The notes below the pieces were generated by a model. The model was not told the origin of the DNA. It was given only the letters and a program-made list of their open reading frames with translations, and made no database searches. From the IMG/VR virus record IMGVR_UViG_2671180890_000008: 32,106 nucleotides of DNA. The stretch is one strand, 5' to 3'. Shown one piece after another: positions 6,920 through 28,764 of the stretch; position 1 is the first letter of the stretch; each line of letters opens with the position of its first letter. This DNA is from a virus. Its lineage: Duplodnaviria > Heunggongvirae > Uroviricota > Caudoviricetes. A program made the translations under genes and the position numbers.

Positions 6920-6948
6920 TTGACCATTCCAATAAAATGAATTATGAT
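6920..6948 (+). promoter_or_regulatory. Candidate sigma70 promoter of the HTH cargo gene (-35 TTGACC, 17-nt spacer, -10 TATGAT)
   Basis: TTGACC at 6920-6925 and TATGAT at 6943-6948; GGAGG at 6960-6964 lies 6 nt before the ATG at 6971. The -35 is part of a TTGACCAT direct repeat (6893-6900 and 6920-6927). Confidence 0.35.
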
Positions 6949-6970
6949 AATCGTCAAATGGAGGTGCACA

Positions 6971-7615
6971 ATGATCAAACACACCGCAGCAGAAAGGGAA
7001 ACCAACACTTCAGCTAAGCTGAATGAATACCAGTTGAACCTTCTGAAAAGAATTAACAACCTCGCTATTTCCCTGATGCCTGAATTTGAAGACAAAAACC
7101 AGGCAATTAATGCTATCACGCTGGATGATAGTTCACTGATGCAATTGCTCTACACCGTTCAACTCGAACAGAAGACTCGTGTCAATGACTACGAACTACG
7201 TAAAGTGCGCCGTCGTCGCGAAAATCTGGAACGATTTTATCGTGGGCTTCAGGAGTTAGGCGGTACGCTAAAGGTAAATGACGTGGTCGATATTCTTGGA
7301 ATCACCCGCCAGGCGATCAACATTCGCGTTAAGAAGAACAAGCTTTTAGCATTCAAGCAGAACGGTGATTTTATTTTCCCGAAATTTCAGTTCACAGATA
7401 ACGGGCTGATTCCCGGCTTTGAAGACGTAATGGCGGCATTTGACGAGAATACCCATCCAATGCTGAGGTTGGGTGTGCTGAAATCACCAATAGAGGTTAA
7501 TAGCGAAGGCCTGAAAAAGACGCCGATTCAAATCATGCAGGACGGCGCTAAAAATAGTGAACTTAGTCTGGCTATCCGTGCCGCTAAACAGTTCGGAAAT
7601 CATGTATCCAGTTAA
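6971..7615 (+). CDS. Cargo gene: 214-aa HTH protein with an Xre/MbcA/ParS-like (DUF2384-type) antitoxin C-terminus and a ~100-aa charged N-terminal extension
   Basis: Start chosen at the second Met (MIKHTAAERE...) because of the GGAGG site. Putative HTH 'VVDILGITRQAINIRVKKNKL'. C-terminus '...TPIQIMQDGAKNSELSLAIRAAKQFG' fits the P-x2-hydrophobic...G...hydrophobic-rich...G pattern of RES-antitoxin toxin-binding domains as I recall them. Lower GC than the phage core. Confidence 0.5.
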   Translation: MIKHTAAERETNTSAKLNEYQLNLLKRINNLAISLMPEFEDKNQAINAITLDDSSLMQLLYTVQLEQKTRVNDYELRKVRRRRENLERFYRGLQELGGTLKVNDVVDILGITRQAINIRVKKNKLLAFKQNGDFIFPKFQFTDNGLIPGFEDVMAAFDENTHPMLRLGVLKSPIEVNSEGLKKTPIQIMQDGAKNSELSLAIRAAKQFGNHVSS

Positions 7616-7624
7616 TTGTTTTAA

Positions 7625-7650
7625 AAAGAGGGGCTAGCCAGCCCCTCTTT
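7625..7650. terminator. Bidirectional rho-independent terminator between the convergent cargo genes
   Basis: Perfect 11-bp stem AAAGAGGGGCT / AGCCCCTCTTT with a 4-nt loop (AGCC), sitting between the two stop codons (7613-7615 and 7654-7656). Confidence 0.7.
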
Positions 7651-7653
7651 GGT

Positions 7654-8364
7654 TTACATTGGTTCTGGCGTAATTTCGAATCCAAGCAGTTCTTCGAACA
7701 TCTCTTCACCTGACATCGTTCCTTTGTGCCACCCTTTAGGGAAGATACCTTCGTCATTTTCGATGTAACTGGCATAAGGCACCATCCCCTGAGGGGTATC
7801 GGTAAAGGCTGGTGTACTATCCGGTCGTTCCCAAAAGGCATAACAGCGTTTATAGCGTTTATGCCTTGAGGTATAGGCTATCCCGTCATAGTCACGCCCG
7901 AAATGTGTATAAAGATGTTCCATTAGCCATTGAGTAAAAGTGTAATCCTCGTTCTCTAAGCTATCCAAAGGAATATGTAACAACTCACAGAGCGCTACAA
8001 CATCGATCACTTTCACTGGCCTCATGACATCCACAGAGCACATATAGTGTTGTGAAAGTACCGATTCAGGATAAGAAATCGTCCCTTCGAGATGGAGCAA
8101 ACGCCCATAAGCTTCTGCCGCCGCCGTTAACGCAGAGTCAGAGGCATACCATACCGCCACACATCCCCCTGGGGGGTTGTATCGCCCACATTTATTTTCC
8201 TCAATTGGCGCTCTGAAGTTGATTGCGCTTTCATACAACGCCATTTGATGACGCTTCAAAAGACCAGAGCCTGGTTGAATGTCAATCGCCGGAATACGTC
8301 CAGATTTATTTTTTGCAGCAATTCCTTGTGCAACAATATTTTTTTCAAATGTCCATTTGGTCAT
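7654..8364 (-). CDS. Cargo gene: RES-domain protein (predicted NAD+-targeting toxin of the RES family), 236 aa
   Basis: Start set at Met17 (MTKWTFEK...), preceded by AGGAG with an 8-nt spacer. 'CGRYNPPGGCVAVWYASDSALTAAAEAYG' matches the RES-domain Arg/Glu core (G-R-x-N...Y-x-A...E), and 'GIAYTSRHKRY' supplies the conserved Ser region. Confidence 0.7.
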   Translation of the reverse strand: MTKWTFEKNIVAQGIAAKNKSGRIPAIDIQPGSGLLKRHQMALYESAINFRAPIEENKCGRYNPPGGCVAVWYASDSALTAAAEAYGRLLHLEGTISYPESVLSQHYMCSVDVMRPVKVIDVVALCELLHIPLDSLENEDYTFTQWLMEHLYTHFGRDYDGIAYTSRHKRYKRCYAFWERPDSTPAFTDTPQGMVPYASYIENDEGIFPKGWHKGTMSGEEMFEELLGFEITPEPM

Positions 8365-8481
8365 TTTTACTACTCCTTCTATAAACAGATTAAGCCATAG
8401 GCTCCTCTCCATATTGATTGAAAATAATCCCTACCGTGCTTGCCCGGCAGGGGGTATGAGAACATGTGTATCTCAATCTCG

Positions 8482-8490
8482 ATTATACCA
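8482..8490 (-). promoter_or_regulatory. Candidate extended -10 promoter (TGgTATAAT) for the RES gene
   Basis: Minus strand reads 'tttgctTGGTATAATcgag' about 120 nt upstream of the RES start; no convincing -35. The predicted leader contains a mini-ORF (GGAGAGGAGCCT ATG GCT TAA). Confidence 0.3.
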
Positions 8491-8779
8491 AGCAAATTTT
8501 CTATTTTTCGGAAATTTAGAGAGTTTTTTTAATGCTTCGCATGCCTTCTCGATGTATTGATGGGGCTGAAAAGAAGAAATAACGCAGGAAGTTTTACGGA
8601 AAGGAGAACTATAAAGATTTTTATCAAGTGAATTAGAAATAAGAACTTCGCAGGATACTGCATTTTTAGTGAAGATGGGTTGAGTTTCTCAGCAAGAGTC
8701 CCGCGAGAGCCGTATTGACAGCATGCATGACTCGGAGATTATTCCCCATGCAGGATGGTACACCAATGCAAGAGTTGGT

Positions 8780-8968
8780 TTACGCAAATGATTGGATGAT
8801 CGCGATTACCGACCGTACATTGCGCAAATAACGTTCTGCGTCGATGCTATTAAGATGCCCCGACCACACCGTACGACGGACGCCGTAGTGATCCGAGCTT
8901 AAGAATAGATAATCTTTTCTCTCCTGATTCACCGTTCGCAGTGCGTTTTCCATAGCTGTCGCAAGCAC
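8780..8968 (-). CDS. Short hypothetical ORF (62 aa in the track) downstream of G; possibly a gene remnant
   Basis: Open frame only; no convincing ribosome-binding site; sits next to an inverted repeat (8984-9023). Confidence 0.2.
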   Translation of the reverse strand: MLATAMENALRTVNQERKDYLFLSSDHYGVRRTVWSGHLNSIDAERYLRNVRSVIAIIQSFA

Positions 8969-9058
8969 AATACTTCCGCTACAGGCACAGAGCGGACTGT
9001 CAGATTAGGTTTTACTCTGTGCCATAGATGAGTAATCTCATACCAGAGCTAATACGAT

Positions 9059-9637
9059 TTATTGCGGCATTTCTGGCCATTCTATATCCGGAGCATCTTC
9101 CGGCTGAACGCGATTCAGTAGCACACGGTATTTTTTCCAGTGTGTCAGGCTTAACTTTTCTTCCTCGGTAGCCATATCTAAATCGACAGCATCCTGCAGC
9201 GTGGCAATAATTTCACCTGCATATGCAATCAGCTCTTTCTTCTGAGAGTCAGCCGCTCTGACAAGCGCATCACGCTCTGCATTCTCATCATTCACCCACG
9301 CATTTCCGTTCCATTTCTGATAATCCCCATCCGGGGAAATGGCTGTCACGTCTGGAGGTAATACGCCAAGTTCAGAAATATAAATGGCTACTCCCGTTTT
9401 CGTTTCATAGACGGTCTTTCCGCGATGGTCTTCCATCAGTTCCCATTTCATTTCATCTGCATTGAAAACGGCTGCATAACCAGCAGGAATATCAGGTGGT
9501 GCAATATCTGTACTGTTTGCAGGCAGACCTGTATGCGGCGGAATATATGCATCACTTTCGCCAATAAACTCATTGGTTCCATCAAGTAAATTGAAAACGC
9601 GGATAGTTTGTGCTTCTGCACTCATTCTGAAAGCCAT
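9059..9637 (-). CDS. G: Tail fiber assembly chaperone (lambda Tfa-like), 192 aa
   Basis: N-terminus '[54 protein letters not shown]' and C-terminus '[11 protein letters not shown]...[10 protein letters not shown]' closely resemble lambda Tfa and P2 gpG as remembered; start overlaps the H stop. Confidence 0.85.
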
Positions 9638-12255
9638 TATGCAAGCCTCACAATATAGTTAAATGCGATGTTTTTGACGGTGTTTTCGGTATTACCAGTA
9701 GCATTTACGGTAATGGAATGCCCGTGTGAGCCAATAGCAACAGTGTGTGAATGTGCACCAATACCAACAGTATGGTTATGTGCTCCAATGTCGACTGTAT
9801 GTGCATGATTGCCTGATGAACTTGTAGTCGTAGCACCTTTATCACTTCGCGGAACACCATAATCAGCACCGCCTGATTGCACGCTCACAGCAAAACCGAC
9901 GGTATGTGTATGATTGCCAGAAGTATTGGTTGATTTTGTGCCGTGGTTAAACGTACTGACTGTTTTTGTCCCGTAATCAAATGAACTGGTCGTTTTCGTT
10001 CCTAAGTCCGTATTTGACGCACTGGCGCTGTGAGTATGCGATTTAATCCCGTCCTGTTCCTGTGACAATACGGCACGCCCACTGGCGGGTTTGCCCTTGA
10101 TTGTCCAGCCGCGCATATCAGGAATAACACCAGAAGGATAGGCAATAGCCAGTTTCGGATATGCAGCCTTATCAAACGTCTGCCCCTGCATGATCGCATA
10201 GCCTGCAGGTGGTGTATCTGATGGCCACGGCAGCGGAACACCTGGCGGAAACGCTTCAATATTTGCCGAGCCGTCAAATTTTACGCCGTTAATTGTCCTT
10301 GGCGTTTTCAGCTTTGTAGCTGTAGCCGCATTGCCGGACAGTTCGCCTGAAATACCGGCGCTGAAGGTTTGTTTCGCCGCCCATGTCTGAGCTTCGTCGA
10401 TAATTGGCACACGTCTTGTCGTGATCGTGCGGCTTCCCGGATTTCCTGAAATACGCACCATAAAAAAGCGGTAATTCGCTTTACTTACAGTGCTGCGCCA
10501 TACATGCATTGAGCGCCCCGTACCGGAATCATCACTCGGACCAACTGCGATGTTTATCAGGTTGCCATCAATGACGCCCCAGTCCATACCGTCGGGAATG
10601 TTGGTCATGTTATCAAGCCGAACGGTTGTCAGGCTGCCCGGCACAAAGTCGTGGGTCTGCCAGTCCAGGCTGGTGAGCTTTGCCACTGCACCGCCGATAC
10701 CCAGATTCAGGGGAAGTGAATACGAGGTGTAGACTTCCCGCCATTCGCTCCACGAGCTGCCGGTATAGACGCGCTCAAACGTGCGACCTTTAAGGGTTGC
10801 ACCTGTTCCGGCAGTTGTATAACGCTGCCATACGTTAACACCATCAAAGCGCCTCAACACTTCCAGAATACCGAGGACTGTCACGCCGTTTCCGTCCAGT
10901 ATTGGGCCGTTGGTCGCTTTACCTGTAACGCTGTAAATACCTGGTGAAGTCACATCATTCAAATCCCCGTCGTAATAACGACTCTCTGACTGATGACCGA
11001 CTCTTAACCACGGTTCCCACTGCGGATTTGATGCATCCCAGCTTGCCGCAAGGCAGCGGACATACATATTTCCACGGCGAGTGGTATAACGTTGCGTTCT
11101 TCCATAATTCCCGCCTTCGAGGATCTCAAGCGTCCCCTGAGCAAAGCCGCCTTCCTCTGGATAATTGCGTTCATATGAAGCTATAGCCGAGCTACTGTTA
11201 CGCCATAAACCAAGATGTTCGGCGGCTCCAAGCGTATTCAGGTCTATAGTCGTACTCAAAGGGCGGGTAGCTGATTGAGTGTGACGCCATACGCCCCATG
11301 GACCATCAGTACCATTCCACTTATTGGCGAGTTTACGCATGTATACATTGCCGTCTCTCGTGATAAAGCGTTGCATGCCTGCAAAATTGCCGGCAGCAAA
11401 AACCTCAAGCACACCGACAGCATTATCTTCCGGGAAATTTTTCTCCAGTGTTGCGTTAGTTGAGGTAGCTTTAGACCAGATCCCCAGATAAGCCTTAACG
11501 GGACCAAATGTATTCAGATCAGCATCAACCGGCATTTCGCCGTTGTTTTTCATAAACGTCAGGCTGGTAACGCCAACATTGTCCAGAAAAGCTGATTTAT
11601 CCTGGATATCTGCACCATTCTGATTTTTCGCCAGACGTGAATTTGCGTTGTCATTTGCTGCCTTGACCGCTTTTGGCGTTGCCGCCAATGACTCACTGGT
11701 GCTGTTTGTTGCACTGCTTAACTGAGTAAAACCTTTTTCTGTCAGCGTGGCGTCAGGATGGCGGCGGGACTGCTCATGCTCTGCGATTTTGTCATCGACG
11801 TAATCCTGCGTCGCCATCACTGTGCTGGCATCAATACTCAGCTCAACGGACGCCACGTTGCTGAGAATAATAACCATGCGGCAGGTCTGCGCACGTCCGG
11901 AGCCTTCAGCCAGTTCTGGCTTATAGCTTTCTGCCATGTTGGATACCGCAATCAGTGTTCCGGCATCGTCATACAGACCAAGCTCACGCATCCAGAAGCC
12001 GCCCACATCTGGCGGAACAACCAGTTCAGCCACGATATAGTTTTTATTCTTGTTATCCACACTGACTTTATTCAGGGCATGACGCCAGACTTCATGCACC
12101 AGTTTCGTCTGACCGGCATCCGGCACCGGCAATTGGCCATTACCGTCACCCACAGCCATTGCAGACAGGTTTACTTTTTTCCCGCCGGGAACAGTGGCGG
12201 CTGCCAGCTTCGCGGCTCCGGCAGTAGTGATAACGGTTTTAAATTTCGTGCTCAT
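9637..12255 (-). CDS. H: Tail fiber protein H, 872 aa, mosaic C-terminal receptor-binding region
   Basis: P2 gpH-like N-terminus ([20 protein letters not shown]...); three internal ~80-90-aa repeats (residues ~242-510); a tail-collar-like motif ([31 protein letters not shown]); six His-x-His motifs in residues ~738-848. Confidence 0.85.
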
Positions 12256-20948: not shown

Positions 20949-21121
20949 TGTCAGGAGTCCTGAATAGTGATTAGAGGAGTCACATGTCGGCATCAGTTTC
21001 CCGACGATGCGCATCCTCCGCCATCAGTCCCGGATGGCTTATCACTGACACAACAGCACCTTAGCGAATCGCGGGGCGCGACTCAGTAGCCTTGCCGTGT
21101 ATTCATCACGGCGAGGTATTC

Positions 21122-22894
21122 ATGACCATCACCACAGACACCACTCTTTTACACGACCCGCGTCGTCAGGCGGCGCTGCTGTACTGGCAGGGATTTTCCG
21201 TGCCGCAGATTGCCGCCATGTTGCAGATGAAACGCCCGACGGTGCAGAGCTGGAAACAGCGCGACGGCTGGGACAGCGTTGCCCCCATCAGCCGTGTCGA
21301 AATGAGTCTGGAAGCGCGGCTGACCCAGCTCATCATCAAACCGCAGAAAACCGGCGGTGACTTCAAGGAAATTGACCTGCTCGGACGCCAGATTGAACGA
21401 CTGGCACGGGTCAACCGCTACAGCCAGACCGGCAACGAGGCAGACCTTAATCCGAACGTCGCTAACCGCAACAAAGGCGGGCGGCGCAAACCGAAAAAGA
21501 ATTTTTTCAGTGACGAGGCCATCGAAAAGCTGGAGCAGATTTTCTTTGAGCAGTCTTTCGAATATCAGTTGCACTGGTATCGCGCCGGGCTTGAGCACCG
21601 CATCCGCGATATCCTGAAATCCCGCCAGATTGGCGCGACGTTTTATTTTTCCCGCGAGGCGCTGCTGCGCGCCCTGAAAACCGGTCATAACCAGATTTTT
21701 CTGTCGGCCAGTAAAACGCAGGCGTATGTGTTCCGCGAATACATCATCGCCTTTGCCCGTCTGGTTGACGTTGACCTGACCGGTGACCCGATTGTCCTGG
21801 GCAATAACGGCGCAAAACTGATTTTTCTCGGCACCAACTCCAACACCGCACAGAGCCATAACGGCGACCTGTACGTCGACGAGATTTTCTGGATCCCGAA
21901 TTTTCAGGTACTGCGTAAGGTGGCATCAGGTATGGCCTCACAGAGTCACCTGCGTTCGACCTATTTCTCCACCCCGTCCACGCTGGCGCACGACGCCTAC
22001 CCGTTCTGGTCAGGTGAACTGTTCAACCGGGGACGCGCCAGCGCCGCCGAACGCGTGGAAATCGACGTCAGTCATAACGCCCTTGCCGGTGGGCTTCTCT
22101 GTGCGGACGGCCAGTGGCGGCAGATTGTCACCATTGAGGACGCCCTGAAAGGTGGCTGCACGCTGTTCGACATTGAGCAGCTCAAACGTGAAAACAGCGC
22201 CGACGATTTTAAAAACCTGTTCATGTGTGAATTTGTTGACGACAAGGCGTCGGTGTTCCCGTTCGAGGAGCTGCAACGCTGCATGGTCGACACGCTGGAA
22301 GAATGGGAAGACTATGCGCCGTTTGCCGCAAATCCGTTCGGCTCCCGCCCGGTATGGATTGGTTACGACCCGTCACACCGTGGCGACAGCGCCGGATGCG
22401 TGGTGCTGGCACCGCCGGTGGTGGCCGGTGGCAAATTCAGAATACTTGAGCGTCACCAGTGGAAAGGCATGGACTTTGCCACCCAGGCTGAATCCATCCG
22501 CAAACTCACCGAAAAATATAACGTTGAATACATCGGTATTGATGCCACCGGCCTCGGTGTCGGCGTGTTCCAGCTCGTGCGCTCGTTCTATCCCGCCGCG
22601 CGCGATATCCGCTACACGCCGGAAATGAAAACCGCAATGGTGCTCAAGGCAAAAGACGTTATCCGCCGAGGCTGTCTGGAATATGACGTCAGCGCCACCG
22701 ACATCACCAGCTCGTTTATGGCTATCCGCAAGACCATGACCAGCAGCGGACGCAGCGCCACCTATGAGGCCAGCCGCAGCGAGGAAGCCAGCCACGCCGA
22801 CCTCGCCTGGGCGACCATGCACGCCCTGTTAAATGAGCCACTCACCGCCGGTATCAGCACTCCGCTGACATCCACCATTCTGGAGTTTTACTGA
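21122..22894 (+). CDS. P: Terminase large (ATPase) subunit P, 590 aa
   Basis: Start at the internal Met (MTITTDTTLLHDPRRQ...) preceded by GAGG; 590 aa as P2 gpP; divergent from O. Confidence 0.9.
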   Translation: MTITTDTTLLHDPRRQAALLYWQGFSVPQIAAMLQMKRPTVQSWKQRDGWDSVAPISRVEMSLEARLTQLIIKPQKTGGDFKEIDLLGRQIERLARVNRYSQTGNEADLNPNVANRNKGGRRKPKKNFFSDEAIEKLEQIFFEQSFEYQLHWYRAGLEHRIRDILKSRQIGATFYFSREALLRALKTGHNQIFLSASKTQAYVFREYIIAFARLVDVDLTGDPIVLGNNGAKLIFLGTNSNTAQSHNGDLYVDEIFWIPNFQVLRKVASGMASQSHLRSTYFSTPSTLAHDAYPFWSGELFNRGRASAAERVEIDVSHNALAGGLLCADGQWRQIVTIEDALKGGCTLFDIEQLKRENSADDFKNLFMCEFVDDKASVFPFEELQRCMVDTLEEWEDYAPFAANPFGSRPVWIGYDPSHRGDSAGCVVLAPPVVAGGKFRILERHQWKGMDFATQAESIRKLTEKYNVEYIGIDATGLGVGVFQLVRSFYPAARDIRYTPEMKTAMVLKAKDVIRRGCLEYDVSATDITSSFMAIRKTMTSSGRSATYEASRSEEASHADLAWATMHALLNEPLTAGISTPLTSTILEFY

Positions 22895-23928
22895 TGAGCA
22901 AGAAAAAAGGGAAAACACCGCAACCTGCGGCAAAAACAATGACCGCCAGCGCCCCGAAAATGGAGGCATTCACCTTTGGTGAGCCGGTACCGGTACTCGA
23001 CCGCCGTGACATTCTGGATTACGTCGAGTGCATCAGTAACGGCAGATGGTATGAGCCGCCGGTCAGCTTTACCGGTCTGGCAAAAAGCCTGCGTGCTGCC
23101 GTGCATCACAGCTCACCGATTTACGTCAAACGCAATATTCTGGCCTCGACATTTATCCCGCATCCGTGGCTTTCCCAGCAGGATTTCAGCCGCTTTGTGC
23201 TGGATTTTCTGGTGTTCGGTAATGCGTTTCTGGAAAAGCGTTACAGCACCACCGGTAAAGTTATCAGGCTGGAAACCTCACCGGCAAAATATACCCGCCG
23301 TGGTGTGGAAGAGGATGTTTACTGGTGGGTGCCGTCCTTCAACGAGCCGACAGCCTTCGCGCCCGGCTCCGTGTTTCACCTGCTGGAGCCGGATATTAAT
23401 CAGGAGCTGTACGGCCTGCCGGAATATCTCAGCGCCCTTAACTCTGCCTGGCTGAATGAGTCGGCCACGCTGTTCCGCCGCAAGTATTACGAAAACGGCG
23501 CACATGCCGGATACATCATGTACGTCACCGATGCCGTGCAGGATCGCAACGATATCGAAATGCTTCGCGAAAACATGGTCAAGTCGAAAGGCCGCAACAA
23601 CTTTAAAAATCTGTTTCTCTATGCCCCGCAAGGGAAAGCCGACGGCATTAAAATTATCCCGCTCAGTGAAGTGGCAACGAAGGACGATTTTTTTAATATC
23701 AAAAAAGCCAGCGCCGCTGACCTGCTGGACGCGCACCGCATCCCCTTTCAGTTGATGGGCGGCAAGCCGGAGAACGTCGGGTCGCTGGGTGATATTGAGA
23801 AAGTGGCAAAGGTCTTTGTCCGCAATGAGCTTATCCCGTTACAGGACAGGATCCGCGAGATAAACGGCTGGCTCGGCCAGGAGGTCATCCGCTTTAAAAA
23901 CTACTCACTGGACACTGACAACGGCTGA
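22894..23928 (+). CDS. Q: Portal protein Q, 344 aa
   Basis: 344 aa, P2 gpQ length; last gene before cos. Confidence 0.9.
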   Translation: MSKKKGKTPQPAAKTMTASAPKMEAFTFGEPVPVLDRRDILDYVECISNGRWYEPPVSFTGLAKSLRAAVHHSSPIYVKRNILASTFIPHPWLSQQDFSRFVLDFLVFGNAFLEKRYSTTGKVIRLETSPAKYTRRGVEEDVYWWVPSFNEPTAFAPGSVFHLLEPDINQELYGLPEYLSALNSAWLNESATLFRRKYYENGAHAGYIMYVTDAVQDRNDIEMLRENMVKSKGRNNFKNLFLYAPQGKADGIKIIPLSEVATKDDFFNIKKASAADLLDAHRIPFQLMGGKPENVGSLGDIEKVAKVFVRNELIPLQDRIREINGWLGQEVIRFKNYSLDTDNG

Positions 23929-23933
23929 ACATC

Positions 23934-23955
23934 GCCGCCTGCGGGCGGCTTTTTT
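23934..23955 (+). terminator. Rho-independent terminator after Q
   Basis: GCCGCC-tgcg-GGCGGC stem-loop followed by TTTTTT, starting 6 nt after the Q stop. Confidence 0.7.
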
Positions 23956-24097
23956 ACACCCCGTCATCACGCCCTCACACGCTCACCACCGCACAAAACA
24001 CCCCGCAGACACACCAACGCCCCGGCGCACAATATAAACGCCATCACGACGCGCTCAGACGCTGAAAAAATAAAATCAGCACCACCGCCAGCGCGCA

Positions 24098-24116
24098 GTG
24101 CTTTCCCCGCCTCGCC
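24098..24116. other. cos: cos site (19-nt cohesive end core)
   Basis: 'GTGCTTTCCCCGCCTCGCC' is the reverse complement of the P2 cohesive end as I remember it (GGCGAGGCGGGGAAAGCAC); located between Q and A. Confidence 0.6.
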
Positions 24117-24267
24117 CGCCCGCTTCATGGGTCGGTTTGAATGCAGTTGAATTACAACTACCAAACCAAGCAATCCCTACTATTACGCAGAAAATGCATA
24201 CTGAAATACCTCGTGCAAATTGATGCAGCTAAGTATGCATAGGTTTTATGCCTCAACGTATACGTTA

Positions 24268-26100
24268 TCAAACAGAGCCCTGTTCAAATACAGTATCAAA
24301 ATATGGTAGGAGAGGATAAGCACACAGAAAGAAAATCAGGATGCATGCATATGTCGTTGTTTCATCGTAACAAGCATTAGTATATAAATTACCATGTGCT
24401 AATTTATGTCTTAAGGTTGCCCCACTCTTTCTATTAAAAAGAACATCGATAGTTAAAACAAGATTCTTAGAAAAGATACTTTCCAAATCATCTCTGCATT
24501 TATCTAGAAGCTGAGAAATACTTGTTGACTCCTCTAATCCCTTATCCAAATATCTAGTAGCATCCTTTCCACTAAGCTCATAATAATAACGAACCATACC
24601 TTCCATTTGTGGTATTAAAAGATAAGCTGCACTGATGTAATCTCCCTGCCATAATTTGTAAAAGCCCAAATTAAAAATCTCCCTAAACTCCGGCTTGACA
24701 ATTGGACTAGTTGTAACTAATTTAACGAATGTTGACAACGTCAAGCCATGTTCTTGAGAAAGTACATAGCGAGCAGGTTCAAAGACACCGTTTACAAAAA
24801 TCTTATGAGTAATCTCGAAATTTCTTAGATATTGATCAATAACAACATCATCACTCATATCTTTTTTATTATCCAACGGCGGGATTGTATATACCTTACG
24901 CCCACTCTCATCATTAATTTCTGTTCCAACAAAACTAGAGAATAAACTTTTTTCTGATAATCTTAAAACTTGCTCCCTCATGCTTTCAATATTTTCAATC
25001 GGTGTTTCACGCATTAAAACTTTGAATATATCGGGCAAAGAACGCCCCGTCAGTTTTTTTTCACTTTCAGCAACCAAGTCACTAATATCAATAGAATGGC
25101 TTAAAGTGACATATTCACTCCTTACTTCTTCTCTCAAATTAGCAAGTTGTTCCTTTAAATCTTCTATCTGTTGTCTATCACCACCGTACTGTCTTAATTC
25201 AGAGATAGCTGTTCTTAACCAAGAGATCTTACCCATATTATCAGGTCGATCTGTTGCAACTTTAATAGTAATATTTGCAGATGCCAGTTTACATCTCTTG
25301 GCACGTTCATACTCACCATTTTTTTCATAAATAACTGCACTTGTCATATAAAGTGATTTTACAGCATCATAATATTTTTTATCTTTATGCTGCTCAGCCA
25401 TCTTCTCAGCATTTTCCGCATACTGCAGATTATACCCATCAAAATCACGCACCATAAACCAAGTCAAATTATTGAAACCTTCAAAGATTAATCTTTCATT
25501 TTGAATACTATAAAGAGAATGAATGGCATTTTTAATCGCCATGTTTCCTTCTGATTTTCTAGGGTAGACCATTTTATTAATGTGCAAAGCCCTAGCAATA
25601 TAATCACGAGCAAAAATAAAGCAATTTAAATCACTTTCATTCATGCTTTCGTTTTTTATTATTAGTTTTTCAATTGCTATATTTAGCATTTCAGCATAGG
25701 AATCAATTGCTTTAATTGCCACGTCTTTATTTTTCCGGTTATTACACCAAACAACATCATATATTCTTGATAACAAAAATGGATTGGTTATTTTTTGAGA
25801 AACATATAAAAGACAGTCATTCACCTGCTCATCAAAATCTTCAGGCAATATTGATCTTTTATTACCCCAAATCATTTGGGGTTCAAATGATGGAGTGTTG
25901 TTAACAACTTGCAAATTGAAACTATATAGCATACCAAAAAGAGATGCTAATTTTTTCTCTTTGGGGTTTTCTGATGATTCAGCAATCCCATCCAGATATT
26001 TTTTTATTTTATGTGCATGAAATGTAACTGGTATATGCATAAAAACACTATAATCTAGTGTTTCAAGCTCTTCCCTTGTAAGAACAAAGATATCATTCAT
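24268..26100 (-). CDS. Cargo gene at the tin/old position: 610-aa protein of unknown function with a C-terminal R-x4-H-x-G (HEPN-like) motif; candidate single-gene anti-phage defence protein
   Basis: Long open frame in a strongly AT-rich island. Start at Met35 of the track ORF (MNDIFVLTREELETL...), preceded by AGGTG with a 6-nt spacer. No Walker A motif. 'ATLRHKLAHGNLY' is encoded at 24394-24411. Replaces P2 tin/old. Confidence 0.8.
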   Translation of the reverse strand: MNDIFVLTREELETLDYSVFMHIPVTFHAHKIKKYLDGIAESSENPKEKKLASLFGMLYSFNLQVVNNTPSFEPQMIWGNKRSILPEDFDEQVNDCLLYVSQKITNPFLLSRIYDVVWCNNRKNKDVAIKAIDSYAEMLNIAIEKLIIKNESMNESDLNCFIFARDYIARALHINKMVYPRKSEGNMAIKNAIHSLYSIQNERLIFEGFNNLTWFMVRDFDGYNLQYAENAEKMAEQHKDKKYYDAVKSLYMTSAVIYEKNGEYERAKRCKLASANITIKVATDRPDNMGKISWLRTAISELRQYGGDRQQIEDLKEQLANLREEVRSEYVTLSHSIDISDLVAESEKKLTGRSLPDIFKVLMRETPIENIESMREQVLRLSEKSLFSSFVGTEINDESGRKVYTIPPLDNKKDMSDDVVIDQYLRNFEITHKIFVNGVFEPARYVLSQEHGLTLSTFVKLVTTSPIVKPEFREIFNLGFYKLWQGDYISAAYLLIPQMEGMVRYYYELSGKDATRYLDKGLEESTSISQLLDKCRDDLESIFSKNLVLTIDVLFNRKSGATLRHKLAHGNLYTNACYDETTTYACILIFFLCAYPLLPYFDTVFEQGSV

Positions 26101-26116
26101 CGTTTTCACCTTTTTC

Positions 26117-26144
26117 AGTATAAATTTGCACACATTATTAGCAA
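26117..26144 (-). promoter_or_regulatory. Candidate sigma70 promoter for the 610-aa cargo gene (-35 TTGCTA, 16-nt spacer, -10 TATACT)
   Basis: Minus strand reads TTGCTA-(16 nt)-TATACT about 17 nt upstream of the start codon. Confidence 0.35.
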
Positions 26145-26216
26145 CATAATTATCAATAGTTAACACATGCAGATAAACAGCAATTTTACTATTATGCAAC
26201 AAATTAAATCAGATGT

Positions 26217-28499
26217 TTATTGCTCTGAATAACAATAAAACCAACTCCACTCATCAGCGACCGGATACGTGAATTTTTTCCCGTCATAATTTACGGTCGC
26301 GCCACGCGCCAGCGCCTCAAGGTCCCATCGCTGCGGCCTGATACCGTTCTGAGCAAGGTCAACGCGGATACGGGTAATTTGCATTCTTTCTGACCGGGTC
26401 AGTCTGGCAGATGGTGCAATTTCATGCGGTTTTAACGGGATTCCGTTTCTTTGCTGACGATTTGGTGTTCTCAGTCCGTGTTTTAATGCGCCCCTGAGCG
26501 CCATCACGACCTCCGGGTCACTCCATTCGATAACACCGTCATCTACCAGATTAAGCACTGCTGCGGCGTGCTCAGAAGGTGTGGGAGCCGGTGACGAAGT
26601 ATCACCACCGGTGAGCTTTCCACAGTTATTGACAGGACTCCGAGGCGCGGCGATGCCGCTTTTTAAAGTCAAAGGCTCAACGACCGGAACTTTCGGCACA
26701 ATGCGCCAGTCCGTCGTTCTGGTGATATGAATATGACGCGCGCCGAGATGCGGCGCGTAAATGCCGACCACTCTCTCGACTTCTTCCTCGTACTCGTTAA
26801 CGTCATCCGACGGACTACGGGCAACCCTGACAGTCTGACAATCGCGCGGAACATTTGCCCCACCCTGCGCGCTGATATACAACGCAAAATCACCTCTGTC
26901 TGCGGCAGCGCGTGCAGCCTCGACGCGTTCGTCAAACTCATCAGCAATACTGACGCCGCGAGGCAATTTGCGTAGTTCACGGTAAGCCCCCATTGTCGGC
27001 AGGCCAACCGTTTTAAATTGCGGGATGCGCCACGTTGACGCCCATGCGGTAACAGCCGCAGCAGTATCTTTCAGCGGCCTGCCGGTATCGTTATCGAGCT
27101 GACCATCCAGTGCATAGCCGTCGATGTTTTTTGAGATGTATTTCGCGATATACCCCGCAGCACCGCCCCGATTAAGGTGTTTTGCCTGAAAACGGTTTCG
27201 CGCGGCTCCTCTTTCGTCGCCATCCTCTTTGAGCGCATAGCGACGCATGATTTCGATAATCTGGTTACGCTGGCGCGGATTACAAAAAAGCATCATATGC
27301 CAGTGCGGCGTTCCGTCGTGGTGTGGCTCGACGACACGCAAACCGTAGACCTGTAAATCATTATCCTTGAATGCCGTGCGCATCAGGCTCCAGATATGGC
27401 AGAGATAACGCTGCGCATCCTTTGGATTAAATGCCTCATCGTTCCAGCCGTGATTTAGCTGGACAGTTTTACTTTCGCCTTTTCCGACCTGACGTGTCGG
27501 GTGATACTTTGACGGCGCGGTCAGCGTGATAAACATCCCCACATCACCCTCTGCTGCGGCGTAACGCTCAATACCGGCAATGGTGTTCATCAGCTCCATC
27601 CGGCGAATTTCAGGATTAGAAATACTGCCCATCACCTTACTGATAAGGTCGATGCGCTCGCCGGTTTCCCTGTTTTCAAGGTCACACGATTTAAGAAATT
27701 CCAGATTTGCCTGGCGGCGCGCACGCACATCACGAATGGCATGTTTACTGGCATAAGGAGAACGGTCTTTATTGACCTCCCCGACAGCAATCAGTAACGC
27801 CTCATGCCAGCGCATACGCTGGCCTTTAAGCTGATGAATCCACCACTCATCGTTAAACAGGCGGGCAATGGCAGAATATGCCTGCCTCGTGGTCATCTGC
27901 CCTTTACGGTATTTTTTCCAGTAGAGCGGGGAAATATTGAAAGCACGTGCAGCGCCAGCAACATGACCATACAGGTGAGCCTGCGCCTCATCCGTAAACA
28001 GCGATTCTTTTTCGCCATGGGCATCCACCCAGGCATCGCAGAGTTCCTCATACATCATGAAAAGCTGCGATGAGATACGGGCGGCAAATTTTTTCAGCTC
28101 CTTGTCATTCATTCCCGGCAGGCGCGCATAGTGGTCACGCTCTGCCAGAAACAGTAACGACGCGTCGGTGTTCATTTCATGGCGCTGATTCACGCGCTCA
28201 ATGCGCGGCCATAAACGACGCTGAAAAGTGGCTGTGAGGAAATAAAACCCGTGCACCGGGCTTTTATTGCGCCGGATGTAGTCATAGCGTGAAGTAAACA
28301 GCGAGCGCAAAAAGTAAGGCAGGCGGTTAATCGTGGATAAAACACCTTGCACCTGACGCATCTCGTCACGTGTAAGGGGTCTTTCGCGCCCGACAGCCTC
28401 GCGTGGCGTGTTCCATGCATAAGCACCGGTAAACGCCTTACCGGTGCCTGCGGCAAATGCTGACGGAGGGACAAAACGCCCGGAGGCTTTAACGGCCAT
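26217..28499 (-). CDS. A: Replication initiation protein A (rolling-circle nickase), 760 aa
   Basis: Start at the internal Met (MAVKASGRFVPPSAFAAGTGK...), which matches the P2 gpA N-terminus as remembered; length about equal to P2 gpA. Confidence 0.9.
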   Translation of the reverse strand: MAVKASGRFVPPSAFAAGTGKAFTGAYAWNTPREAVGRERPLTRDEMRQVQGVLSTINRLPYFLRSLFTSRYDYIRRNKSPVHGFYFLTATFQRRLWPRIERVNQRHEMNTDASLLFLAERDHYARLPGMNDKELKKFAARISSQLFMMYEELCDAWVDAHGEKESLFTDEAQAHLYGHVAGAARAFNISPLYWKKYRKGQMTTRQAYSAIARLFNDEWWIHQLKGQRMRWHEALLIAVGEVNKDRSPYASKHAIRDVRARRQANLEFLKSCDLENRETGERIDLISKVMGSISNPEIRRMELMNTIAGIERYAAAEGDVGMFITLTAPSKYHPTRQVGKGESKTVQLNHGWNDEAFNPKDAQRYLCHIWSLMRTAFKDNDLQVYGLRVVEPHHDGTPHWHMMLFCNPRQRNQIIEIMRRYALKEDGDERGAARNRFQAKHLNRGGAAGYIAKYISKNIDGYALDGQLDNDTGRPLKDTAAAVTAWASTWRIPQFKTVGLPTMGAYRELRKLPRGVSIADEFDERVEAARAAADRGDFALYISAQGGANVPRDCQTVRVARSPSDDVNEYEEEVERVVGIYAPHLGARHIHITRTTDWRIVPKVPVVEPLTLKSGIAAPRSPVNNCGKLTGGDTSSPAPTPSEHAAAVLNLVDDGVIEWSDPEVVMALRGALKHGLRTPNRQQRNGIPLKPHEIAPSARLTRSERMQITRIRVDLAQNGIRPQRWDLEALARGATVNYDGKKFTYPVADEWSWFYCYSEQ

Positions 28500-28764
28500 A
28501 TGAGCCAAAAGCCTCTGAACAACGCTTGCTGAGTTGCTCAACCTGCGCGTTTAAATCAGCAAAAGACTTTGCGCTTCCGGTCAGAATATCGTGATGCATC
28601 AGGCCGGAAACGAGCTGGCTTAATTTCGGGTAATAACCAACCACCGCCAGCCATTCCTGACCGGCGTTTTTACCGCTTTCCGCTCTCTTTTTCTCGTGGA
28701 GAATAAACTGAAAGCTGTCACTGGTAACGACATAACGTTCGCCAATTTCGATACGAATACTCAT
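28489..28764 (-). CDS. Small early-operon protein, 91 aa, function unknown
   Basis: ORF in the B-to-A interval where P2 carries orf80-83. Confidence 0.6.
   Translation of the reverse strand: MSIRIEIGERYVVTSDSFQFILHEKKRAESGKNAGQEWLAVVGYYPKLSQLVSGLMHHDILTGSAKSFADLNAQVEQLSKRCSEAFGSYGR

Follow-up and report, generated by a model that had tools for sequence, protein, structure and literature searches.

Genomic context and base composition of the island

The window analyzed here, a stretch of 32,106 nt, corresponds to a P2-like prophage of E. coli. The genes for the terminase P (21092-22894, + strand) and the portal Q (22894-23928, + strand) are followed by a P2-type cos site, with its 19-nt cohesive end GGCGAGGCGGGGAAAGCAC at 24098-24116 on the - strand. 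This is an exact match to the cos sequence of P2, annotated as cosR in NC_001895, and none of 100 shuffled sequences produced a match. Replication gene A occupies 26217-28541 (- strand). Between cos and the stop of A we found an AT-rich island of 2.06 kb (24160-26216, without strand), delimited by GC content and by comparison of the flanks. Its GC content is 0.33 (0.331 for the ORF that it carries) versus 0.531 in the rest of the window, 0.559 in P and Q together, and 0.532 in A. Along the GC profile, values of 0.30 to 0.35 over ca. 24200-26200 stand against 0.53 to 0.59 on each side, and the island is the 2-kb stretch of lowest GC within the window. The first-pass annotation, made from the sequence alone, had described an AT-rich segment of ca. 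2.1 kb at the cos-A junction and had stated that the same interval holds tin and old in P2; both statements hold, with the addition that P2 carries orf91 there too. The island limits that it gave (24120-26215) need a correction on the left side, since other P2-like phages have only positions 24100-24159 of the cos-A interval in common and stay conserved to ca. 24159, which places the true edge at ca. 24160.

The cos-proximal region between gpA and gpQ of P2-like phages is a hotspot of anti-phage systems, which also holds nondefense cargo such as partition systems and a cytolethal distending toxin (Rousset et al. 2022, PMC9122126). The island has the position and the behavior of such cargo: it lies between gpA and gpQ, beside cos, and its content varies among relatives. 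An Rfam scan of 23800-26400 gave no match, and no convincing flanking repeats of the island were found. A gene nearly identical to the one in the island is present in 55 of 5,426 complete E. coli genomes, versus 1,422 that have the flanks alone. The horizontal acquisition proposed at first reading is supported, and the island is best seen as acquired cargo at the cos-A hotspot of a P2-like E. coli prophage.

A single gene and its upstream region

The island contains one long ORF (24268-26100, - strand, stop codon at 24268-24270), further ORFs being only antisense and inside the gene, which agrees with its earlier description as a single-gene island. The ATG at 26100 gives a protein of 610 amino acids plus stop, and an alternative TTG at 26202 would give 644 amino acids. 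The 610-aa form is the one annotated by RefSeq in E. coli S88, and homologues align from M1. The spacer upstream of the gene measures 116 bp (26101-26216, - strand) and includes a Shine-Dalgarno-like AAGGTG at 26112-26107, 7 to 12 nt 5' of the ATG, together with sigma-70-like matches. Three of these (9/12 each) span 26219-26117, the first beginning 3 nt upstream of the spacer, in the end of gene A. A promoter-like signal belonging to the gene had been claimed before; the matches do exist, but their number is not above chance (13 in the AT-rich region versus 8.7 ± 2.6 expected from shuffled sequence). In the stretch that separates the stop of A from the ATG we detected nothing resembling a terminator, which leaves room for read-through from A. 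From the sequence, an independent promoter for the ORF seems plausible. Upstream DNA showed no conservation across the homologous loci, a comparison that is uninformative because these regions are too divergent.

Domain architecture and family membership

The protein is best read as an all-helical three-part chain composed of a DUF7380 domain, TPR-like repeats, and a C6orf70-type HEPN domain. The N-terminal DUF7380 domain (aa 4-184, 25549-26091, - strand; helices plus a small beta-sheet) matched Pfam PF24098 with an E value of 3.9e-39 and 134.7 bits versus a cutoff of 27, and the RefSeq product name is accordingly "DUF7380 domain-containing protein." Across 158 aligned full-length proteins of the family, the source of all conservation counts given here, its near-invariant residues are R82, D88, R112, D115, W118, Y135, and R170. 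The central part (aa 185-452, 24745-25548, - strand) is an alpha-helical TPR-like repeat region, for which whole-chain fold searches return TPR/solenoid proteins. In the same alignment, D397 and G400 are conserved just ahead of the HEPN domain.

The C-terminal DUF4209 (C6orf70-type HEPN) domain (aa 453-606, 24283-24744, - strand) was assigned by Pfam and by helix order. With the full 610-aa protein as the query, the DUF4209 match covered residues 524 to 590 with 19.5 bits, below the Pfam cutoff of 22.3, and with the C-terminal fragment it reached 21.8 bits (E value of 2e-4), just under that cutoff. Among the relatives, DUF4209 was detected in 28 of 29 C-terminal fragments at an E value of ≤10 (best, 1.5e-13) and in 37 of 50 full-length proteins at ≤0.001. 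Judged by these profile scores, the family as a whole appears to belong clearly to DUF4209, and the 610-aa sequence itself is a borderline case. A relaxed Pfam scan of the 29 C-terminal fragments gave DUF4209 only and no other HEPN family.

The PADLOC model PDC-S39 matched over the full length of the protein (residues 7 to 598, E values of 3.5e-84 and 8.3e-84), and the gene, which has no conserved partner, conforms to the single-gene composition of that system. PHROGs assigned it to phrog_5183 (function unknown), an NCBIfam scan of the 610-aa protein gave no match, and neither Pfam nor the structure model gave any indication of a membrane segment. When 50 diverse relatives (20 to 64% identity) were scanned, DUF7380 and PDC-S39 were recovered in 50/50 each. 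The identity of the gene and of its family is thus nearly certain, and the earlier statement that the family could not be named has to be withdrawn, given the matches to Pfam DUF7380 and DUF4209 (C6orf70 HEPN), PDC-S39, PHROG 5183, and system #13 of Rousset 2022. The same reading had denied a P-loop, correctly: the 610-aa protein has no Walker A motif and no ATPase or TOPRIM match in Pfam or PADLOC, and an Old-type ATPase is ruled out.

HEPN signature and predicted fold

HEPN domains are recognized by an Rx4-6H motif whose arginine is followed by N, D, or H and by a conserved acidic residue upstream, in helix 2, typically as Ex3[KR]; they fold as an up-down bundle of four helices in which an insert separates helix 2 from helix 3 and the motif ends helix 3, and the activity expected of the superfamily is metal-independent RNA cleavage that leaves 2',3'-cyclic phosphate ends (PMC3710099). 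In the window protein, "LRHKLAHG" corresponds to residues 563 to 570 and provides the catalytic-type motif R564-H-K-L-A-H569 with a polar residue after the arginine, followed by G570 (24394-24411, - strand, codons read). Its form is therefore R-x4-H-G, and not R-x4-H-x-G as written in the first-pass annotation. The upstream acidic element of HEPN active sites is found in E500-G-M-V-R504 (24589-24603, - strand, codons read), within a model helix that runs from 488 to 509. All 158 members have E500, R564, and H569, and 157 of them have R504; at residue 565, H occurs in 129, N in 26, D in 2, and S in 1, which makes 157 with H, N, or D. These counts, and the polar residue after the arginine, argue for a conserved active site, and the C-terminal HEPN-type domain proposed earlier, with its R564 and H569 invariant, is supported.

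The structure model of the protein (pLDDT of 92.7) places helices at 470-485 and 488-509 (with E500 and R504), an insert at 510-544, a helix at 545-568 ending in RHKLAH, and then a helix at 580-606. As modeled, this order would fit the described HEPN topology. The top matches of whole-chain fold searches were only TPR/solenoid proteins and included no solved HEPN structure, and searches of PDB sequences with full-length and C-terminal profiles gave nothing below an E value of 0.3. The survey of Anantharaman et al. 2013 (PMC3710099) classes DUF4209 as the C6orf70 HEPN family and describes it as largely bacterial, "fused to TPR," found in operons related to restriction-modification (R-M), and with a predicted catalytic activity. 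According to the same survey, loss of catalysis in a HEPN lineage usually goes along with loss of the Rx4-6H motif, and the eukaryotic C6orf70 branch is predicted to act in endoplasmic reticulum (ER)-associated RNA degradation, not in immunity.

Distribution and genomic neighborhoods

An exhaustive HMMER search retrieved 3359 clusters at 50% identity with an E value of ≤1e-3, and 615 with ≤1e-30, nearly all of 600 to 640 amino acids and matching end to end. In the E. coli genomes with a near-identical copy, the neighbor was a "replication endonuclease" in 20/20 among the matches listed. Further copies are found in phage vB_EcoM-569R9 and on a Salmonella plasmid. The question of whether homologues recur at the cos-A position, raised in the first-pass annotation, has a positive answer: genes with 53 to 64% identity lie between gpA and the portal gene in P2/186-like prophages of Klebsiella and Kosakonia and on a metagenomic contig. 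In a wider search, made with a subset of 15 aligned sequences and with identities given relative to an alphaproteobacterial representative, distant members (22 to 47%) appeared in Alpha- and Gammaproteobacteria, Verrucomicrobia, Acidobacteria, Chloroflexi, and cyanobacteria. Family members are also plasmid borne, one of the plasmids being haloarchaeal.

Among 130 ORFs flanking 33 of these loci we found no conserved partner gene, and no protein family recurs more than three times. Scattered among them are genes for type I restriction enzymes, RmrA, IetS, PifA, and methyltransferases, as well as mad genes, together with mobility genes (integrases, resolvases, and IS66 transposases). The distant homologues fit a solitary mobile gene in variable or defense-type neighborhoods, an association that is qualitative. 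A HEPN-MNT pair or other HEPN toxin-antitoxin module was also considered and rejected, there being no second ORF in the island and no recurring neighbor family in the 130 flanking ORFs.

Previous records and the published plaque assay

The gene is already known, having been catalogued both as PDC-S39 and as system #13 of Rousset et al. 2022. The latter appears in Table S5B of that work under the Pfam name "DUF4209," with 193 occurrences in E. coli P2 hotspots (PMC9122126), and its protein, which starts with MNDIFVLTREELETLDYSVFMHIPVTFHAHK, is the window's protein. In Table S2B, the plasmid pFR103 ("Putative HEPN") is entered as a one-gene system of the P2 locus of E. coli S88; the insert begins inside the 3' end of A, the reverse primer sits at the end of Q, and the native promoter is included (PMC9122126). 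The S88 protein (WP_000997854.1) is identical to the window protein in 606 of 610 residues (99.3%), with four substitutions. The cloning and plaque assay proposed in the first-pass annotation were therefore already done, with a near-identical allele, its native promoter, and eight phages in MG1655. In the tables cited, pFR103 is placed among the "additional tested systems" and not among the validated ones, and the accessible part of Rousset et al. 2022 holds no check of pFR103 expression (PMC9122126). Three of eight further P2-hotspot systems cloned in that study were active, a homologue of PARIS did nothing under its own promoter and worked once induced, and the authors anticipated a larger share of validated systems if further phages were used (PMC9122126). 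In a 2026 study of P4/P2 hotspots, most previously untested candidates were protective against a panel of 28 phages.

PDC-S39 itself is one of 145 candidate systems predicted by guilt by embedding, the selection criterion for PDC systems having been a location inside BREX, DISARM, or type I RM loci (bioRxiv 10.1101/2024.01.29.577857). DefensePredictor classifies other E. coli DUF4209 proteins as novel defense genes, with log-odds of 4.3 to 8.1, their nearest known family being the AbiJ C-terminal domain (HH probability of 62 to 67), and its tables of tested and validated genes contain no DUF4209 relatives. In the literature, no paper mentioning "DUF7380" was found, and the HEPN survey of 2013 was the sole match for "DUF4209"; "PDC-S39" is reported merely among detected systems in the portions of those papers that are accessible.

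A predicted HEPN RNase and its proposed role in phage exclusion

The explanation that we favor, with moderate confidence, is that the gene encodes a single-gene, trigger-activated HEPN RNase used for phage exclusion. Under this model, the HEPN site would be held inactive in the uninfected lysogen, and the DUF7380 and TPR part would either respond to a cue that a competing phage provides or keep the enzyme switched off. The cue would lead to dimerization or unmasking of the HEPN domain, dimerization being probable, as in other HEPN RNases. The composite E500/R504/R564/H569 site would then cleave RNA (tRNA, rRNA, or mRNA) in a metal-independent manner, translation would be arrested, and the infection would abort with exclusion of the competing phage. 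Location, architecture, family membership, invariant signature, horizontal mobility, and lack of a partner gene are established for the 610-aa protein; the RNase activity, the trigger, and the anti-phage function are what we infer for it.

In favor of the HEPN defense model we counted the hotspot position and composition, the PDC-S39 match, the invariant signature, and the helix order, and also the presence of relatives in the same A-Q slot in other genera and in prophage P2-EC46, their occurrence on plasmids, and the DefensePredictor scores of relatives. To these we added the classing of DUF4209 as a HEPN family, the TPR-like middle part, the size and constant length of the family, and flanks with no shared neighbor family but scattered RM and mobility genes. 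Against it we counted the negative pFR103 plaque assay, which is the only direct test, the sub-cutoff DUF4209 score, the lack of a solved HEPN structure or PDB profile match, and the qualitative nature of the defense-island association. The anti-phage function stays a prediction because the published allele, 99.3% identical, was not validated.

The most serious competitor, to which we give a clearly minor share of our belief, is a HEPN-type RNase with no anti-phage role, acting, for example, in stress or translation control of the lysogen, in postsegregational addiction, or, when transcription reads on from A, in lytic growth of the phage itself. The negative plaque assay speaks for it. The ORF is codirectional with A and begins 116 bp downstream of it, with no terminator-like site and no promoter signal above chance between them, the P2 hotspot does hold partition systems and a cytolethal distending toxin, and the eukaryotic branch is predicted to work outside immunity. 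However, relatives are embedded in BREX, DISARM, and RM loci and have been noted in R-M-related operons, their sporadic, mobile spread through prophages, plasmids, and variable islands follows the usual pattern of defense genes, and DefensePredictor scores relatives as defensive. An addiction module in particular is at odds with the lack of an antitoxin-like partner.

Defense or exclusion might instead be directed at targets beyond the tested panel, such as other P2-like phages, P4-type satellites, or plasmids, or appear only under other conditions (temperature, higher expression). Such a reading refines the main explanation rather than adding an independent mechanism, and we regard it as improbable. 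It would sit well with the small panel of the published assay (eight phages), with the PARIS homologue that became active only when induced, with the rise in validated fraction expected from more phages, and with the 2026 study, in which most of the previously untested candidates were protective against a larger panel. Finally, a noncatalytic HEPN-like bundle serving in binding or regulation (cf. the MtlR type), the protein then being a scaffold or regulator dominated by interaction-type TPR repeats, could account for the fold searches that recovered no solved HEPN structure, but it is very unlikely given R564, H569, and E500 in 158/158 members, R504 in 157/158, and the typical polar residue after the arginine.

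A bolder extension of the predicted HEPN RNase model, which we put forward tentatively and consider rather doubtful, is that the family represents a widespread single-chain immune sensor-RNase, the prokaryotic prototype of ERMARD/C6orf70, in which the R/D/W/Y cluster of DUF7380 would form a new trigger-binding module. If this were true, the negative assay of 2022 would be explained by an activating cue absent from standard coliphage panels.

Were the family defensive, a broadly distributed type of HEPN effector (at least 3359 clusters from many bacterial phyla, and an archaeal plasmid) would be added to the prokaryotic immune repertoire, and both the eukaryotic ERMARD branch and the DUF7380 domain would become accessible to functional study. 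The window provides one more copy of a candidate that is already catalogued and that was tested once and not validated, and a reminder that PDC-S39, of the DUF4209 family, is without a phenotype.

Comparison with known systems

The closest counterpart is system #13 of Rousset et al. (pFR103, from S88), which is the same gene at the same locus (606/610, four substitutions), with a clone that is not among the validated ones in the tables cited. PDC-S39 shares the full-length match and the single-gene organization, PDC systems being candidate predictions; its setting is that of BREX, DISARM, and RM loci, whereas the window gene sits in a prophage hotspot.

At the family level, C6orf70/ERMARD proteins have, like the window protein, a C-terminal DUF4209 domain with Rx4H and Ex3R elements and a TPR-like fusion. 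In eukaryotes, proteins of this family have a transmembrane segment and a predicted ER association, in contrast to the window protein, with its bacterial DUF7380 N terminus and no indication of a membrane segment. HEC-08 (DUF3644-HEPN) and DS-11 (CBS-HEPN) likewise combine HEPN and a putative regulatory or sensor module in one polypeptide, and mutations of their HEPN catalytic residues abolish defense (the histidine of Rx4-6H in HEC-08). They belong to other HEPN families and have other accessory domains, and defense is established for them, whereas it is predicted here.

The old and tin genes of P2 occupy the same interval between gpA and cos and are lysogenic-conversion exclusion genes. P2 Old combines a P-loop ABC ATPase with a TOPRIM nuclease, unlike the window protein, which lacks Walker A and shows no sequence or domain kinship with either old or tin, and the orientation is also opposite (from cos toward A for old and tin, and from A toward cos for the window gene). 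Another member of the family is ORF612 of P2-EC46 (AM157366.1), from a P2-like prophage of ECOR46, which has 612 amino acids, is annotated as hypothetical, and aligns over 99% of the query. Since it is only 33% identical to the window protein, we take it to be a second lineage of the family.

Conserved residues outside the HEPN site

In an alignment of 158 full-length members of the DUF7380/DUF4209 family, a second near-invariant polar cluster was found within the DUF7380 domain (window positions 25549 to 26091, minus strand), formed by R82, D88, R112, D115, W118, Y135, and R170, which are conserved in 94 to 98% of the members. The same alignment showed conservation of D397 and G400, located in the hairpin that precedes the HEPN domain.

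Surroundings of the gene and a second low-GC patch

The 610-aa ORF is flanked by a 15-nt imperfect inverted repeat (24192 to 24206 and 26113 to 26127, 87% complementary), probably a chance match given that the surrounding DNA is so AT-rich. Elsewhere in the window, a patch at ca. 7000 to 10000 has a lower GC content (0.445 versus ca. 0.55) and includes two ORFs. One codes for a 252-aa RES-domain protein (7654 to 8412, minus strand; PF08808, E value 2e-12), had no match in PADLOC, and neighbors a tail-fiber assembly gene (Caudo_TAP, 9059 to 9637). It probably represents cargo carried at the Z/fun position, the second variable locus of P2, and its product may be a RES-type toxin. The other (223 aa; 6944 to 7615, plus strand) matched nothing in Pfam or PADLOC.

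Relatives in plasmids and other P2-like prophages

A copy of the 610-aa gene with 99.5% identity is located at 80684 to 82513 of a Salmonella enterica plasmid (NZ_CP019203.1, a 178-kb record). Distant members of the family are plasmid-borne in Klebsiella, Aeromonas, Deinococcus, Bacillus, and the archaeon Natrinema. Among prophages, the A-Q hotspot of a 186-like element of Kosakonia cowanii (locus L005, 9070 to 10675) contains a homologue together with three more ORFs that lack annotation, of 286, 85, and 151 aa, which shows that the family can coexist with other cargo in this hotspot. ORF612 of P2-EC46, a P2-like prophage of ECOR46 (AM157366.1, 220 to 2058), is annotated as hypothetical and belongs to the same family, with 33% identity to the 610-aa protein. 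Table S5B of Rousset et al. (PMC9122126) contains another "DUF4209" system besides #13, namely #55, with 76 occurrences.
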